A stretch of 64,000 nt of DNA, taken from positions 19,592,001 to 19,656,000 of the forward strand of contig OZ004615.1 in NCBI GenBank assembly GCA_963924565.1, written 5' to 3'. Position 1 is the first letter of the stretch; every line of letters starts with the position of its first letter. Shown here piece after piece: positions 52,623 through 64,000 of this stretch. The position numbers were made by a program, and so were the translations under genes. Under the pieces are notes generated by a model. That model was not told the DNA's origin. It did no database searches and worked only from the letters and a program-made list of their open reading frames with translations. This stretch comes from Ascidiella aspersa (Eukaryota).

Positions 52623-52681
52623 GCTCTTACTGCTGTCGCTACGCATCCATGAACGAGCGATGCCACGACACATGTATGCAG
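52623..52681 (+). CDS. RECK: RECK coding exon 2 (GSYCCRYASMNERCHDTCMQ)
   Basis: TTTCAG| ... CAG|GTGAGC, 59 nt, phase 1 to 0. CC-x8-C-x3-C pattern as in vertebrate RECK CC1 (CCNHSKDNQMCRDVCEQ, recalled). Confidence 0.92.
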
Positions 52682-55763: not shown

Positions 55764-55847
55764 ATATTTCAAACGCACGACGCCAACTTTCAACGGGAAT
55801 TGGAGATTCGCTTCCCCGTCAGTTGTCCGAGAAGAGACAGAAATCTG
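55764..55847 (+). CDS. RECK: RECK coding exon 3 (IFQTHDANFQRELEIRFPVSCPRRDRNL)
   Basis: TTTCCCAG| ... CTG|GTGAGT, 84 nt, phase 0 to 0. Aligns to vertebrate IFSSKSESRLKHLLQRAPDYCP. Confidence 0.9.
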
Positions 55848-58329
55848 GTGAGTTTTTATTCCAAATCCAGTCGGAGTAAATTGTAAATTTACCTTTTAAA
55901 ACAGTGGCTTCCAACATTGTATGGAGCTTGGATATGTGGTGGACCCTGTATGTTCTCTTGTAGCCAATGCGCCGTTGTATCTTTGCCATTAAACAATAAA
56001 TTGTTGGTTTTTTTAATGTTCCATACTAAAACAAAATAACGTATTTGACGAATACTTACTTGTTCAACAAAACGTTTTTGGCCGCTATTTTAAACGTGTC
56101 TCCTTTAGTTTAACAGCTTGGTATATTTGGTGTGTTAAAAAAATTTTAACACCCATAAAAAAGTACCTATTTTTTTATTTCGGGATTTTGTTATACGCTG
56201 CATGCAAAACAGTGCCAGGCAGCTTGCAAACTTCGCTGACATTCGTTGACATTGGCGTTGTCAGTTTCGATTCGTTGATTAAGTGGTTTTGGTTTTGCGG
56301 TTTCTTTGCTGGAATGTGCTGCGGAACGTTAGATTAGGGGTGGTCCGGGCATGCAAGTGCTAACCCTGCCTTGCTACTTGTTTAAATATGGGGTTTAAGT
56401 GTTGCTTTCGACGTAAGTCGCTCTTTATTCTTCTCGCATTAGAAAGAAAACTGTTTTTTTGTCATAAAACTTAATTATCTAGCCCTTCGTTATTATAAGG
56501 TATTTGAGTTAAATTAAAAACATAACAAAATTTGCCTTAAAAAAAATTGTCTTATGTTGTCCAACTTAAATCCTATTTGTATGTTGCCTTTGCTAAAACT
56601 AGCTAAAACGTAGTGCTTCGTAAAATCACAACCAAGACACAGTTCACCGCACATGAATTGGTGGCCAAACCAACAGATCAGTATTAGCGATAAGACTAGT
56701 CCAGATTAGTGTCACCCATTAGTTTTAACAGCTTTTTAGGCCGTAAGACCAATATTACACTGGTGTTATGAAACCGTACTTCAAAACGATTTGTTTTATT
56801 TTTGTTTTCCCGCGTTCGCATGTAAAGCTAGATTGATGGTAACCCTGTCCAATTACCCGTTCAGTAATAATGTACGCTTGTAGTGCAAAAACAAAAGCCT
56901 CGCATATCCGCTTGTTGCGTCACAATGCACCTGCGCCATGACCAAACAATGGCCGTGGAATATTATTATTGTTCGATCAATAAATATTGCTGTCGTGTCG
57001 CTAGGACTCGATATTTGAGCAGTTGTGCTCTCGAAGCCTGCTTGAGGGCCTGGTTATTGCACTTAGAAAGTCGGGATTTGGCTTGGTCACCAACCGAAAC
57101 CGGAAAATGGCACCTCTTTGTGTGTATGACGGCCGCTATTAGTGCGCACACAAATCTTTGGCCGACTTTAAATGTTTTTTTTTACTCCTGGATACTGGTA
57201 TTTTTTCATTTACGAAATACGAAACAGGTAAAGCCGTAATCACTCAAACGCTGTGATGTGAGTTGTTTTTTTATGTTTTCATCGCCCAAAAATATGAAAG
57301 TTTTGCCGGCAAATGCAGTACAAAAGGTTGACGTTTAAAAAAAGTTTATCACCTATTTTTTGATAATTATACCAACAGCAGCCACACTAATTTCGTGTAT
57401 TTTTACCACGAATATTTGGTGTGTCCACTTAACGATTTAAAAAAAAGAAAATTAGCAATAAGAATTTTCTGATTATGTTTGCTAAAATTAACTAAATTCA
57501 CAAATAAACACAAATTACATACTAGTTGTCTTTGTCTTTTGGAAGTGTTCACAAATCTCAAATGTGGGACGCACTCGAAAAACTTATGTAAACACAAGCT
57601 GTTCACATGATGTATTTTTTTGAAATATATTCAACACATTCGGATTATAAATGCAGGCTGCTACGCAGGAAATTTGAACGATAACTGATACTTTGTACAA
57701 CTTGGACCTTGCGAACATACAGCGCAGATGCTTTAGTAGCTCCAACATGTGTGGGTCCTTTTCGAAAACCCTTACGTACAATGCTGTTTGATCCCCGCTT
57801 GAGCGCCACACAATGTAATGGGTCTTGGGTGGTGCACAACGAACCAGTGTACGGGGGCTTGGGGCACGTTACCCAAAACTTGTGACCCAGGGTTGTACAA
57901 ATAAATAATATCAGTGCGTGTGCCTATACAGTTGCCATTTAGGCGACTGACTCGTTTTCGGCCAAGACATAAAACGAATCGTGGAGTGACAACCTTTATC
58001 GTCTTACAATAGGTGTCTATTGTGATTTTGACTGAGATTGCCCCTTACAATATTCCTGTCGAAATATTTGTTTGCAAAAATAAGGAAACCATGTGGTTTA
58101 TATTGGTGAAGCATGAATTTGCAGTTAAAAACAAATCTTTCGACTTGGAAATATTGGATAAAAACGTAAATGTCTCCCAACAAAACAGCCTCTTTTTTCT
58201 TAAATCCAAATTAGTTCGCAAACCCGAAAACAACTGGCATATGTAAACTGTGTGTACCAAGTTGACCAACTAAACTATTCCAGCCTAATTTTGTGGGGAA
58301 ATCGAAATTTTATTCTCACTACTTTGATT

Positions 58330-58610
58330 CCCCGCGATCGGCAAGCGACGGCCAATCGCGTTCGATTGATAACGCAACAATCGACGGAACAATGGTGCCG
58401 CGAAGTTTTGTAACAATTGCGCCCGGAATGCCGAGTTTGTCTTGCGGCCTCTCTTCCGAGCTTTATTTCCTGTTGTGACGTCACAGTCGCCGCGTTGATC
58501 GTCGCGATTTGTAGCGGTTTGTTCGCGTCGAACGATCTTCTGTTACGTCAACAATGGACCCCTTCCTTGTGGGCACGAAGCCGATTGCCCCCTTGGCGAT
58601 CGCGCTTTTG
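58330..58610. promoter_or_regulatory. Intronic CpG island with an ETS-CRE composite site
   Basis: ATTTCCTGT (58465-58473) abutting the perfect palindrome TGTGACGTCACA (58474-58485). Confidence 0.45.
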
Positions 58611-58990
58611 TTTAAGTTTTCCTTCTTTCCGGAATCTTTCGAGTTCGTTTGTATACTTTACCTTCGAATTGAGGTTTGAGTTTAGCATCTATCACCACCA
58701 AAAACCACCCACCCGGACTGTTGTGTCTTTTACTGCTTTCAGTTGAACTTTTATTCGCACAACTGTTTACACCGTCTGTGCCAATCTTTATCATATTTAG
58801 TGTCTAATATATCAATTGCGTGAACTTAAAATTCGGCTGTTTTTCATCGACAAACTGTTGCTACATGCTTTCCCGTGTTTACTTATCCATCTCCGGACAG
58901 CAATATGTTCAAACCCTCTTAGTTAAGTATCAATTTCCGCACGTGTGCATACCAATTCGTTTCAGGATTCACACAGCATAGGCTTTAAGC

Positions 58991-59240
58991 CAGGGGTTCT
59001 TAAACTTTTTTTACCGCGGACCCACCAACTTTTTTTCTGCTTCGCGTTAACCAGGGTAGGAAAAATCTTTTCAGAGATGACGTCACAATACAAATAGACT
59101 TCATAAATCTGCTGATTCCGGTCAAAAAGCTATTTTCTTTGAAAAATTGGTTGTTTCTTAAATATACACTAAGATTTCAATTAGGCCTTCATGGACCTCG
59201 TAAAACTAGTTCACTATGGACCCCAGTTTAAGAACCCCTG
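58991..59240 (-). mobile_element. hAT MITE, inverted copy of the 20326 family
   Basis: Perfect 16-bp TIR CAGGGGTTCTTAAACT; perfect TSD CTTTAAGC. Confidence 0.93.
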
Positions 59241-59803
59241 CTTTAAGCTAAGTATTGTTAACTTTTCGGTGTGATTATTGTTTTCCTAAAAATAAGTCGC
59301 ACCAGTTTTACTTTACTTGAGAACACAATAAACAAATTTAATCGCATATAAACAATTCAATGTCTTTAACTTTTGCTCGGAAAAACAGATCTCGTCAAAA
59401 ACGACTTTTTTGTTGTTACGAGCATGATCCAGACAAATCGATATCCTTTGCGGCCGGCCGAGCAGCCATGCATTTCTTCCGTTAATGTCGCGAACGAAAC
59501 ATTTGCCACAGCAAAATGTTGGTTCTATTTCTGTCCGCATTATGCGCGATCTATTTTCGTCAACACACCGTCATCATTCGAAAGTATATAATTTATCGCC
59601 TATCGACACCAACTCGGGTAATTCGGGTACAAATTCGAATGGTTACATATTTCAGGTATTACAGATGTGAAACAGTTTACGCCAATGTATAAATCAGGTT
59701 TACACGTGGGCTTTGTAGGTGGCGCCTTGTATAAAAAGTGATCCACCCCTATACATTTACGTTATCGTTCGATTTCGTTAACAATTACTTTCTTGTTTTG
59801 CAG

Positions 59804-59837
59804 AGGGACTTCTGGTTCTGCGTTGACGAGCAGTCAG
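59804..59837 (+). CDS. RECK: RECK coding exon 4 (RDFWFCVDEQS)
   Basis: TCTTGTTTTGCAG| ... CAG|GTTGGT, 34 nt, phase 0 to 1. The WxC matches vertebrate VEIWNCMNSSLP and supplies the sixth Cys of CC1. Confidence 0.88.
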
Positions 59838-60935
59838 GTTGGTTAAGATCTATTGTGGCGTATATTAACTTCATTTGCATGTGTTAAAGCATTTCGGTGT
59901 TTTGTGTGAAATTGCAAACCCCCCTTATTTAACATTAATGACTCAAAACAAAGCTGATAATTATATTTACCAATAGTCTATTTATTAACTAAAATGTACA
60001 CAGTGTGTATAGCCCCTGTGGCCCGCTTTGTATAAAAACGGTAATACTCTTCTGGTCACTGCAGTTAAAATAGAGCTCTTAAAACAAAATGTGTGAAAAT
60101 ATGGAGGCATTGGGACTTGTTTCTATTGCACTTTACCTGTGAGCTGAATCAAGGTGTTTGACACATTATAATGCGCGTAAACTATAAGGATATCGTGTAT
60201 TCATTGGAATGGTTTTGAGAATTTATTCTAAGAACACTGCTAGTTTTCTTAGTTTAAACAGATTTTTTACCCCCAAATCAAACATTGATTGCGACATATA
60301 CTAGTTATTCAACAAACCTTGAACAAGAAATTGTTGCTACTTAGGCGAAGGAGTTATGTTACGCAAACAAGATATGCTATCGCCAATGCAGGATAACAAT
60401 TGGCCAACACTGCAGCTTGTGCGAGTGGAGTTTATAAAACAAACTCGATTCACACTGTTGGGCATAACCACCGCATTTCGATAAGGAAATTATATTTCCA
60501 AGTAAAACGCACAACGCTCATGAAACTGAACATGTAGGCTTGTCAACAACAGGCCATGTTACATTTGCTTTATTTTATTGATAAAACAAGTAAAAGTTTT
60601 ATTACGCGTTTTGTTGCTTGTGAAAGAACCTGGATCGACTGTGTGATCAGTATATGAAAAAAGTGATGCGAATCTTCGTATTAAAGCGAAACTATAACGA
60701 ATCTCCATACTGTCTATTGCGGTTGGCTTGTATGAGAAATCCACTTTGGTTTAAACAAATCTAGTGACAATACGTTATGAGCTGTAGAGTCAACAATAGA
60801 GTGTATCTTTATAGAATCGAAAACCATCGGCGGCAGGTTTTAGCCAGTCGATCACTGCTCCGCTGACGCGTATATTAACAAGTAAAACTCATAGTTAAAA
60901 ACATGAGTGAAAACAGGATCAGACGTTTTGTTTAA

Positions 60936-60974
60936 AGGAAAATATATTTCGCCAAAGTGGCATCATCAGTTCCT
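60936..60974 (-). ncRNA. Minimal hammerhead ribozyme, inverted copy (family B)
   Basis: Exact reverse complement of 61564-61602. Confidence 0.85.
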
Positions 60975-61081
60975 GTAAGAGTACAAATAAATAAAATCAG
61001 AGCGCAGCCATCAACAAACCAATAAAAGTAAACAATAAAATATTAAAATATTATAATAGACTAAAAACGCAATGAAAAGGA

Positions 61082-61318
61082 GCAGTATGGAAAACTTTCA
61101 AGTGCAAAGAAAATAACGACAAAGCAGCACTTCTGCGCCACTACGCTGATAAACACATGTCCATGCTGAGGCAGAGGCCTACCATTGCAGAGTGTTTCAG
61201 CATAACATTTTTAGAAAAACCACCTTTTAATAAGTTGGACATATGTGAAGCAAAGTGGCTAAAGGTAGTCAACGCAACCATTAACATCCAAAAAATGGTT
61301 CTACCGCGAATAAGATAA
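61082..61318 (+). pseudogene. C-terminal fragment of a Penelope-type GIY-YIG endonuclease
   Basis: Open frame AVWKTFKCKENNDKAALLRHYADKHMSM...FSITFLEKPPFNKLDICEAKWLKVVNATINIQKMVLPRIR*. The AL..H...H / L...E..W / IN spacing is typical of the PLE endonuclease end. Absent from the ORF track. Confidence 0.75.
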
Positions 61319-61563
61319 ACCGCTATCTTATCGCTACCCATTCGAGCCGCATTTTACCGTCTAGCATCTCGCACTGCTCATATGTATTTTTTCCCCTTCC
61401 TCCACTTATTTGCGTCGCCTACTCATTTATCCCAGTCGTTGCCTGCGAGGCTGTAGTGCTTTTCATTGCGTTTTTAGTCTATTATAATGTTTTAATATTT
61501 TATTGTTTACTTTTATTGGTTTGTTGATGGCTGCGCTCTGATTTTATTTATTTGTACTCTTAC

Positions 61564-61602
61564 AGGAACTGATGATGCCACTTTGGCGAAATATATTTTC
61601 CT
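61564..61602 (+). ncRNA. Minimal type I hammerhead ribozyme (family B)
   Basis: AGGAA-CUGAUGA-U-GCCA(CUU)UGGC-GAA-AUAUAU-U-UUCCU: intact core, stems I and II, palindromic stem III, AUU cleavage triplet. Confidence 0.85.
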
Positions 61603-62475
61603 TTAAACAAAACGTCTGATCCTGTTTTTACTCATGTTTTTAACTATGAGTTTTACTTGAGCTGTAGAGTGTTTTGGGGGACCGAAACGGACAGTAGGAC
61701 ATATGCAAATAATGCCAGCGTTACAAATTGTCCTATTTGAGTATCATTTAAATGACGTAATGTAACATAAAATATAATGGTTAAAGGAATTAAACTTCAC
61801 TTACCTGTAGATTAAAAAACCCGTAGATTAAAACTAATTAAGGTTGGTCTCGGCGTCCTATAATTCAAAGTTTATATTTTGGAGCAGAATGGTTGGAGGT
61901 TGTAGTAGACGTAATAAGAATATCAAAGCTCATACAGAAGTTATTCGATACGTTCAAAACGATACCTACTTTTGTATGGGCTTTGATATTCTTATTATAG
62001 GTTTATATTCTTTTTCGATCAGTGCCTGTATCTTGGGAGCGTACCTCGCGTGGAGGACGCCACATCTTCTCAGAAAAATTTAGACGCTCTTTATGCTGTG
62101 ACGAGCTCGCCGATCGTCCGTGACGTAAATACATCGAGGCCGATTTCGCGACATTCCTACGGCGACCGAACGTTCGCGTTTTAACTCTAACGTGACGAGG
62201 TTTATGCCTGCTTTAAAAAGGCGACGGCTATGGTCGTCACGATATACTGATAATGCTTATTTAATTTGCTTTTAAAATATCGCAAGAAATTGGGTCGAGA
62301 TTTCAAATGACTTCAGAAAGGTGTTTTTGTAAACGCTTTGGCGTACGGGCGGTTGCGCACTTATAATTGCGGCAATGGTAAAATCTGTTGGGTTTTTAGT
62401 CGTCTGAAACCAATACCAGCCAATATTTTTGCTATTGTTTCCCAATTCACTTTTTAAATCAAGTGTTTAAAATAA

Positions 62476-62640
62476 TTTTAACAGATTATGTATTCAACAT
62501 ATTTTTAACAGATCATATAAGTAAAATATTTTTAACAGATTATGTATTCAAAAATTTCTAACAGATCACGTATTAAACAACTTTTAACAGATCATGTATT
62601 TAAATTTTTCTGTTAGATCATGTATTCAAAATATTTAACA
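62476..62640. repeat. Minisatellite, about 27-bp unit x6
   Basis: TTTTAACAGAT(T/C)ATGTATT(C/A)AA variants in tandem. Confidence 0.85.
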
Positions 62641-63961
62641 AAATTGACTTTTCAAATTTCTTAGTCGATGTATGAAAGGTTAAACACACCGAAAGCCGTA
62701 AAACTAAAAATATTCCACTACCAGTCGCATTCTTGTACCAAGCCAACAAGTACTATGGAATAATAAATTTCCTAAGGCTCTGTATTTTACCGAAGTGACG
62801 CCATAACACTGTATACGTCGCATTCATCGCGAAGCCATGATTACGGTTTCGGGGCAGAACCGCTCTATTATGGCGATAGGCACCGTTCCATCGAAATGAC
62901 GGGCCACGAAAGCCGGGCTAGCGTTTCATTAAAATTCCTCGCCTTTCTGCCAGCGGCTCGATGTAACGTTTCGACTTGGGTAAAATGTAGCGCGCGTGTG
63001 GGTACGAATGGGGGTTATGCGACGGGGGCTTTGCAGACAATGGAGCACTAGGAATTGTGCCTATGGGATCAATATCGTTGTAAATGTCCACTTTAAAAGG
63101 TTGTGGAAAGCAAAACATACTGGATTTTCTAACCGGAATCCTTATGCCGTTACTATGGGTGGACCAAACTTGCTTCCCCGAACTAATCTGATACCGTAAA
63201 ATATATTTTGACTGGCTAATTAATAAGCGTTGCAGATAGGAAAAAATAATCATTGTTTGGCTGTTTATTTTTTTTAAATTTTTTTTCAGGTAATATTAAC
63301 GTGAAGGCTAAACAGATGAAACATATTGTAAACGTATTCTTTGATCACCAACGTTGTTTTGGAAGGTGGTTTTAAAAGTCATATTATATATTGCGGTGGG
63401 ACTTACTAAAAATCGCAGAAGCAGAAGTTTACGACAACGCACAAAGTTAAGAAAACAGCAAAGCCTAAGAGGCGTCATAATATAGCCTTTATTGGTGTGG
63501 ACGTGCGCAAAAAAACGCCCCCGACCCCCAAAAGAAAAGTGTGCGCCGGCTCCCGTTCGCGTGATAGGCGCACCTTAGGCGGTACGCCGGAACCTGGCAG
63601 AGACACGAAGCCACGGCATGAAACCATTTACCAGCAAATTAGTGTCTTGCGTATGACTGTACAGCATTGACGCGCGTATTAATCGCCCAGATTCGCTCTG
63701 TCGGCTCTGCTTGACGATCACCCCGTCCGCCCCTAATTTGTTTGTTGTGAATGGCGCCCCTTCCCTACCCCGGTGCTCGCGGGCCCCCTAATGTACCCAT
63801 ACGCTGCCAGTGGGGCCTGAAGCGCTCGACTTCCTTGAAGCTCGCCGCACCCGCCGCGCGCGTTCGTGCTTGTGTGTGTGATGTCACAAGTGGAACCGTT
63901 CCGAAAGATTCAAAGTCGCAACGTCGTGGTCTCGATGTGAAGATTTTTTTTCATTTTTCAG

Positions 63962-64000
63962 TCGAAAATGGCTCGGACGTTTTGTTTTCAAGATTCCTAC
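63962..64000 (+). CDS. RECK: RECK coding exon 5, start only (VENGSDVLFSRFL...), cut by the window end
   Basis: Strong acceptor TTTTTTTTCATTTTTCAG|, open in phase 1. The expected next CC pair lies beyond the window. Confidence 0.6.

Follow-up and report, generated by a model that had tools for sequence, protein, structure and literature searches.

Two shortened Penelope-like 3′ ends lie head to head between predicted RECK exons of Ascidiella aspersa and were likely primed from both strands of one staggered cut

Results

A young inverted insertion in a predicted RECK intron

The window, a stretch of 64,000 nucleotides from Ascidiella aspersa (contig OZ004615.1, positions 19,592,001 to 19,656,000, forward strand), contains an insertion of 867–869 bp that consists of two shortened 3′ ends of a transposon joined head to head (Table 1). 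An earlier note on this DNA, made from the letters alone, had described arms of 201 bp with about 99% identity and a target duplication of 11–13 bp, and had read them as the inverted pseudo-LTRs of a young Penelope-like element. Each of these points was borne out. The arms mismatch at two positions (60909/61629 and 61049/61489), and the duplication is counted as 11–13 bp because the first two bases of its right copy are also element sequence. Relative to the majority base of its family, the RECK-intron copy carries 5 substitutions in 867 sites (0.6%) plus a 2-nt gap; it is young, but not brand new. Variants specific to this locus lie at 60800, 60909, 61049, 61104 and 61150.

The note also placed the insertion in an intron of RECK, and such an intron is predicted on the + strand, on an exon model that is partly unconfirmed. 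The exon at the start of the CC domain matches the Pfam RECK-like_N model below its cut-off. A further RECK-like_N match lies on the + strand past the end of the window, at ~83.9 kb counted from its first letter (27.5 bits, over the cut-off), and additional matches follow on the same strand past that point. Two candidate small exons (55764–55847 and 59804–59837) matched no Pfam model. On this model, the insertion would lie between the predicted CC1 and CC2 exons, in a predicted intron of ~24 kb, and it precedes the exon that opens the second CC domain. In human exon numbering we take this to be RECK intron 4, not intron 6.

Table 1. Features of the insertion and of the neighbouring host gene (window coordinates).
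Feature	Position	Strand	Remarks
Predicted RECK exon, CC domain start	52623–52681	+	Pfam RECK-like_N match, E 8.5e-4, below cut-off
Candidate small RECK exon	55764–55847	+	splice-site and reading-frame evidence alone
Candidate small RECK exon, nearest upstream of insertion	59804–59837	+	evidence from splice sites, phase and a W-x-C motif alone
Target-site duplication, left copy	60778–60790	+	13-nt direct repeat, 11–13 bp
One-sided tail	60791–60878	−	88 nt of element sequence, after pseudo-LTR and before ORF; contains ATG
Left arm	60879–61079	−	inverted 5′-truncated copy of element 3′ end; tailed, 289 nt with tail
Minimal type I hammerhead, left arm	60936–60974	−	antisense to RECK
Head-to-head junction of the two arms	61079–61080		blunt, 0 nt overlap
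GIY-YIG endonuclease domain, last 78 codons and stop	61080–61318	+	no start codon, catalytic motif missing
3′ UTR/pseudo-LTR of tail-less arm	61319–61659	+	61459–61659 is right arm of inverted repeat
Inverted-repeat arms	60879–61079/61459–61659	−/+	201 nt, 99% complementary
Minimal type I hammerhead, right arm	61564–61602	+	sense to RECK
Stem I of + strand hammerhead	61564–61568/61598–61602	+
Core of + strand hammerhead	61569–61575	+
Extra U of + strand hammerhead	61576	+
Stem II of + strand hammerhead	61577–61580/61584–61587	+
Palindromic helix III of + strand hammerhead	61591–61596	+
Predicted cut site	after U 61597	+
Competing strand TCCTGT	61620–61625	+	predicted pairing with 61562–61567, displacing stem I; family-specific
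Target-site duplication, right copy	61658–61670	+	first 2 nt also element end

The element resembles Neptune-type Penelope-like elements

An open frame occupies 61076–61318, and its 78 element-derived codons begin at 61082. In a pairwise comparison, the encoded peptide is 56% identical (44/78, E 2e-30) to the C-terminus of a Phallusia mammillata protein with reverse transcriptase (RT) and GIY-YIG domains. A Pfam search with the 80-aa frame alone matched no GIY-YIG model; the motif itself lies upstream in the element and is absent from the RECK-intron copy. The open tail of the earlier note is confirmed as the end of an endonuclease. The best named relatives also come from P. mammillata, which fits an ascidian host. 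Searching the genome with 61080–61660 returned at least 50 matches at 94–100% identity (40 of 472 candidates scored), and homologues past E 1e-10 numbered 84 in one search and 595 in another. The RECK-intron copy is without RT. In another family copy (L031), the RT reached 29.9 bits against Pfam RVT_1 (cut-off 29.6), and residues 452–489 matched the GIY-YIG model at E 0.002, below its cut-off, with GIY..YVG visible; the homologue P0011 scored over that cut-off.

The family displays the canonical features of Penelope-like elements with a C-terminal endonuclease (EN+), namely a single ORF with RT, a C-terminal GIY-YIG domain and a hammerhead in the pseudo-LTR. The canonical pseudo-LTR arrangement, tandem or inverted with a tail and target duplication, is also present, with partial tandems in L045 and in the sister copy L081. 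A CX2-5CxxC linker between RT and endonuclease and a CCHH motif within the endonuclease are seen in the alignment, where C637, C640, C643, C674 and C687 are invariant and C684 and a His column nearly so. These residues and the C-terminal endonuclease are shared with Neptune and Nematis as they appear in the available sections of PMC8557442, and by eye the linker length is Neptune-like when set against Fig. S2 of its supplement. Members of the Hydra clade have a DKT motif, a CxCX5C linker and no CCHH, whereas this family has DKDG, CxxCxxC and CCHH. Likewise, Naiad and Chlamys carry an N-terminal endonuclease and no canonical hammerhead, whereas here the endonuclease is C-terminal and the hammerhead is present. 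Penelope/Poseidon elements are without the CxxCxxC linker that this family possesses.

A rapidly built tree of 61 long matches, which are search hits with no named reference, placed the family inside a 42-row clade (SH-aLRT 100) marked by the RT motifs DKDG and GIxTG[DE]NxSVSxAN. With these motifs, and with relatives that form a clade of their own in this tree, the family may differ from Neptune and Nematis. A text search of the supplement of PMC8557442 found neither motif; the RT lineage may be unnamed, though a name may exist in that supplement or in Repbase. By its linker and CCHH residues the family appears Neptune-like, while the tree of search hits assigns it to no named clade. The RT lineage (L031 and proteins P0001–P0222) also has a long insert after DKDG. 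Our literature search found no paper on ascidian Penelope elements.

Every inverted insertion has one tailed and one tail-less end

We surveyed family copies at loci picked by searches with the element 3′ end, a sample that is not random. The 100 listed exact hammerheads fell into 78 clusters, comprising 21 minus-then-plus pairs, 57 single hammerheads and no plus-then-minus pair. In a set of 61 clusters, 39 had both ends inverted and 22 had one end only inside the fetched stretch; dropping 2 insertions that repeat another's flanks reduced the 39 to 37. Element ends fall at two positions. Of 101 mapped, 55 were at −11 to +9 of the pseudo-LTR end and 45 at +76 to +88, with 1 at +43. All 37 inverted insertions combine one tailed with one tail-less end, an outcome with a probability of 5e-12 if ends were independent. 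A target duplication of 11–15 nt was found in 32 of the 37 (microhomology counted), and hammerhead cores were present in both arms in 25, in one arm in 8 and in neither in 4. Junctions across the family are blunt, overlap by 1–4 nt or contain short fillers. Two pairs of insertions, L010/L021 (C6) and L115/L116 (C2), have identical flanks; the latter look like a segmental duplicate, while the former have their flanks and duplication in common but measure 2088 and 1040 bp, respectively.

The RECK insertion is an ordinary member of a known Penelope-like insertion type, and the head-to-head layout is its family's norm. An inverted, 5′-truncated copy with a one-sided tail has been described for Penelope-like insertions (PMC8557442, PMC3846280). 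Both Pen2a_Av (PMC3846280) and the elements in the Fig. 2 legend of PMC8557442 show head-to-head pseudo-LTRs, a target duplication, a tail at one end and heavy 5′ truncation. The family differs from EN+ insertions in the available text of these two papers in its tail (~85 nt, 76–88, vs 30–40), in its duplication (11–15 nt vs 8–10), and in a one-tail rule that holds in 37/37 cases where the papers write 'often' or 'optionally'.

The tail follows the pseudo-LTR and probably does not supply the ORF start

The 88-bp extension of the left arm reported in the earlier note, ATG included, is present and is the element sequence that follows the pseudo-LTR. The proposal that this ATG starts the ORF was rejected on one copy (L056) from a sister family 73% identical. 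In L056, the tail is continuous into the ORF; the frame of the ATG meets a stop 20 codons on and is not that of the RT. An in-frame ATG in good context lies ~30 nt past the tail end of that copy. Within the RECK insertion's own family, we found no readable complete tail–ORF junction besides L045, which jumps after 43 nt of tail. This partial tandem (L045:3398-3949) has an upstream copy that passes from the 43 nt of tail into the ORF with the start region removed.

Between sister families, the tail (60791–60878; L056, L081) is 81–87% identical vs ~73% for the ORF. The tail gave no predicted conserved fold (z +0.5 and +1.0). In this family, each of the two end classes coincides with a TTGTT-like motif. 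We regard the tail as a candidate protein-binding and RT start region. The Poseidon element PAc of Anolis (PMC11167929) similarly has two end positions bounding a tail and a hammerhead in its pseudo-LTR. RNA run X18 (6% sampled) covers our element and is deepest at the pseudo-LTR end and tail, as for PAc, with the tail showing the highest depth within the element. The PAc ORF starts inside the hammerhead, whereas the ORF here may start downstream of the tail.

A minimal hammerhead in each arm looks selected within the element

As the earlier note had it, each arm contains an intact hammerhead core. The Rfam hammerhead covariance models gave no match at E ≤ 10 in 58000–64000. The exact 39-nt motif occurs in 104 genomic copies (control, 0), and cores of the same type number 576 in the 309 Mb genome (control, 0). 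In 13 rows selected by hand from several families, 95% of 141 cells in the three helices are paired. Eight cells changed on both sides, a count reached in 0/500 shuffles, the 13 rows being related and not independent; the double-sided changes sit in stem I. The helix that TCCTGT could form with the 5′ strand of stem I pairs in 61% of cells across families, with no covariation. Because the hammerhead is 95% paired with covariation in stem I, while its competitor is 61% paired without it, selection within the element seems to act on the ribozyme but not on the competitor. The alternative pairing suggested in the earlier note is predicted to form in this family, but does not look like a selected switch. 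At least three further hammerhead-bearing families (L117–L146) have other stem I and II sequences.

The motif has the characters of the minimal Penelope-like hammerheads in the available text of PMC4209133: the core, a base between 9 and 10.1, G10.1-C11.1, a palindromic helix III and covarying helices. With those metazoan motifs it shares type I topology, a 5-bp helix I, and palindromic 15.2–16.2 and loop 3. It is unlike them in its helix II (4 bp vs 6–8), in U at position 17 and in a family-specific downstream strand that competes with stem I. The same source had already noted opposite-strand hammerhead pairs 100–700 bp apart. Helix III of the RECK-insertion motif is 2 bp, with U as the base at position 17. 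A U at this position makes a poor cleavage site.

The host gene invites comparison with amniotes, in which RECK intron 6 contains an ultraconserved, active hammerhead that has been suggested to derive from a retroelement (PMC12842694, PMC3088659 and PMC6155905, as far as their available text goes). Both motifs are of type I, on the sense strand of a RECK intron. The amniote motif is single-copy, is conserved in birds and mammals and has in vitro activity (PMC3088659, PMC12842694), while ours is minimal and part of a recent multi-copy transposon in what is presumably another intron. Kinship by descent or function, or a domestication of the same sort caught at an early stage, could draw on the identical host gene and on that suggested retroelement source. 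The 39-nt motif, however, is identical to 103 other copies in the genome, its 0.6% divergence makes the insertion recent rather than old, and it lies before the second-CC-domain exon, presumably not in the orthologous intron. Additionally, with 576 cores in 309 Mb and a gene of more than 40 kb, a chance hit is unremarkable. We consider such kinship extremely unlikely; the shared host gene looks like coincidence and is best read as chance.

Folding predicts a silent ribozyme with or without the antisense arm

The earlier note envisaged a sense hammerhead that would cut RECK pre-mRNA and an antisense arm that, made first, protects the transcript by sequestering the ribozyme, giving a possible ADAR or Dicer substrate. 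The duplex part of this proposal was upheld by folding predictions. With both arms present, 201/201 bases were predicted to pair, the probability of stem I was 0 and the hammerhead lay wholly inside a duplex of −419.6 kcal/mol. The intact core, which covaries across families, also favours the proposal, as does a short kinetic window, stem I being complete 18 nt before the competitor is transcribed. Neutralisation by the antisense arm as the reason for silence was not supported. In the sense arm alone, stem I had a probability of 0.01–0.04 and the competing helix 0.80–0.99; for a fragment ending at 61615, stem I was predicted at 0.85–0.99, falling to 0.01–0.04 once 61620–61625 was included. These folding energies leave out kinetics, Mg2+ and protein. 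In published assays, a single minimal hammerhead gave no cleavage (PMC4209133, available text) and the PAc hammerhead was inactive without protein (PMC11167929). Because one arm alone already loses stem I and published minimal monomers do not cleave, there is little for the antisense arm to neutralise. Whether that arm is present or not, we predict an inactive sense hammerhead in the host transcript, and the duplex would enclose a ribozyme that is probably silent in any case.

The arrangement is not special to RECK, because any head-to-head repeat is antisense-first and sense-second on either strand; indeed, both-arm cores recur in the majority of inverted insertions (25/37), and 8/37 carry a core on one strand only. 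Adding the 2-bp helix III and U17, we judge a protective role, and an ADAR or Dicer substrate of regulatory importance, very improbable. More likely, the layout is a by-product of the insertion mode, not a safeguard of the host gene, and the insertion is likely neutral intronic cargo. The available text of a 2026 preprint places ~43% of related retrozymes of Xenopus in introns, with mild depletion. For RECK and for ribozyme control, the insertion is probably unimportant, being one of many alike.

Sequencing reads over the locus

One contig from run X1 spans the left junction by 40 letters and belongs to a haplotype that differs by 5 letters and 1 gap over 531 bp. Since the left junction is thus found on a different haplotype, this insertion could be common within the species. 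A contig from run X2 reaches only 30 letters into the element, and neither X1 nor X2 gives contig depth over the right flank. No empty-site joint was found among the 15 of 196 matches listed. DNA run X17 had a depth of ~220–430 in the element centre vs ~5 in the flanks. RNA run X18 had zero depth in 12 unique-flank bins and is uninformative on RECK pre-mRNA; it showed no pile-up of ends at the predicted cut site, which fragmented RNA-seq would not reveal.

A>G and T>C places numbered 10 and 18 in RNA X18 vs 7 and 17 in DNA X17, counts that pool family copies and probably different individuals. Two positions stood out. At 60896, T>C was seen in 16/52 RNA reads (X18) vs 6/1208 DNA reads (X17), and at its mirror position, 61642, A>T in 8/25 vs 5/762. 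Expressed variant copies are the simple reading of both; editing or a modified base is also possible.

Two-strand priming as a likely source of the inverted layout

Two routes to the inverted layout can be compared on these data. For Adineta Penelope elements, self-priming was proposed from palindromes at junctions (PMC3846280, available text), that is, a fold-back on the antisense template by which one arm copies the other. Consistent with this route, the tailed arm reaches further 5′ and contains the other arm in 12 of 39 insertions, and 6 are equal and near-symmetric. In the remaining 21, the RECK insertion included, the tail-less arm reaches further and both arms include stretches missing from their partner. 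The RECK insertion has the tail on one arm and an inner 379 nt on the other, and its junction is blunt; in two insertions (L087 and L115) the arms do not overlap at all. Because each of its arms has sequence absent from the other, fold-back of a single strand cannot give the RECK insertion, and we consider it an unlikely origin of the layout.

Minority variants are shared between the arms of an insertion at 40 of 10,731 sites in 25 pairs, 14-fold above the mean of shuffled pairs (p 0.002), and at 16 of 7,920 sites in a second comparison (p 0.008). Of the 40, 32 came from two insertions of one subfamily. Fold-back would fit this sharing too, and instead of one RNA it could reflect gene conversion or a single active source locus. 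Taken together, the one-tail rule, the often longer tail-less arm and the shared rare variants fit priming from two strands better than fold-back.

In LINE-1 twin priming, the two target strands each prime, and the resulting inversion is joined by microhomology. The second start of L1 is variable and its segments do not overlap, whereas the family studied here has both starts fixed and arms that usually overlap. PAc provides biochemical precedent in both-strand cleavage and extension in vitro, with two RT starts bounding the tail (PMC11167929), though with no stated tie to inverted copies. The endonuclease would nick the two strands ~12–14 nt apart, a spacing suggested by the duplications; for another family, cleavage of both strands has been demonstrated in vitro. 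Copying would then begin from one 3′ end at the pseudo-LTR end and from the other ~85 nt further 3′, adding the tail, in keeping with the two observed end classes. Both copies would stop early, and their inner ends would be joined to each other, either bluntly or via 1–4 nt of microhomology. The 201-bp pairing predicted for the arms in RECK pre-mRNA would be a passive consequence.

We hold with high confidence that two shortened Penelope-like 3′ ends lie between predicted RECK exons, likely primed from both strands of one staggered cut, with a hammerhead predicted to be inactive with or without the antisense arm. A stricter model, obligate twin priming, we favour only modestly. Here, a dimeric RT-endonuclease would cut the strands ~13 nt apart and use a different fixed start on each with RNA from one source, yielding exactly one tailed end per inverted insertion. 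Our search, in literature outside subscription, found no paper stating twin priming for Penelope elements. If true, obligate twin priming would replace the published fold-back idea. The family thus offers a natural data set on Penelope-like integration, the mechanism of which is still open in the literature. The strict one-tail rule, fixed stagger and non-nested arms yield precise expectations that an assay like the one set up in vitro for PAc could address, and the 85-nt tail of this possibly unnamed RT lineage makes its two starts easy to distinguish and assay.

Three insertions (L089, L065 and L005) lie in or beside repeats of the CTAACCC/GGGTTAG type. Downstream of the RECK insertion, 61870–62000 is occupied by a different, palindromic element of very high copy number, with inverted repeats of 30 nt and a DNA depth of up to ~4300 vs ~5 in the flanks; L008 has similar sequence next to its family copy.
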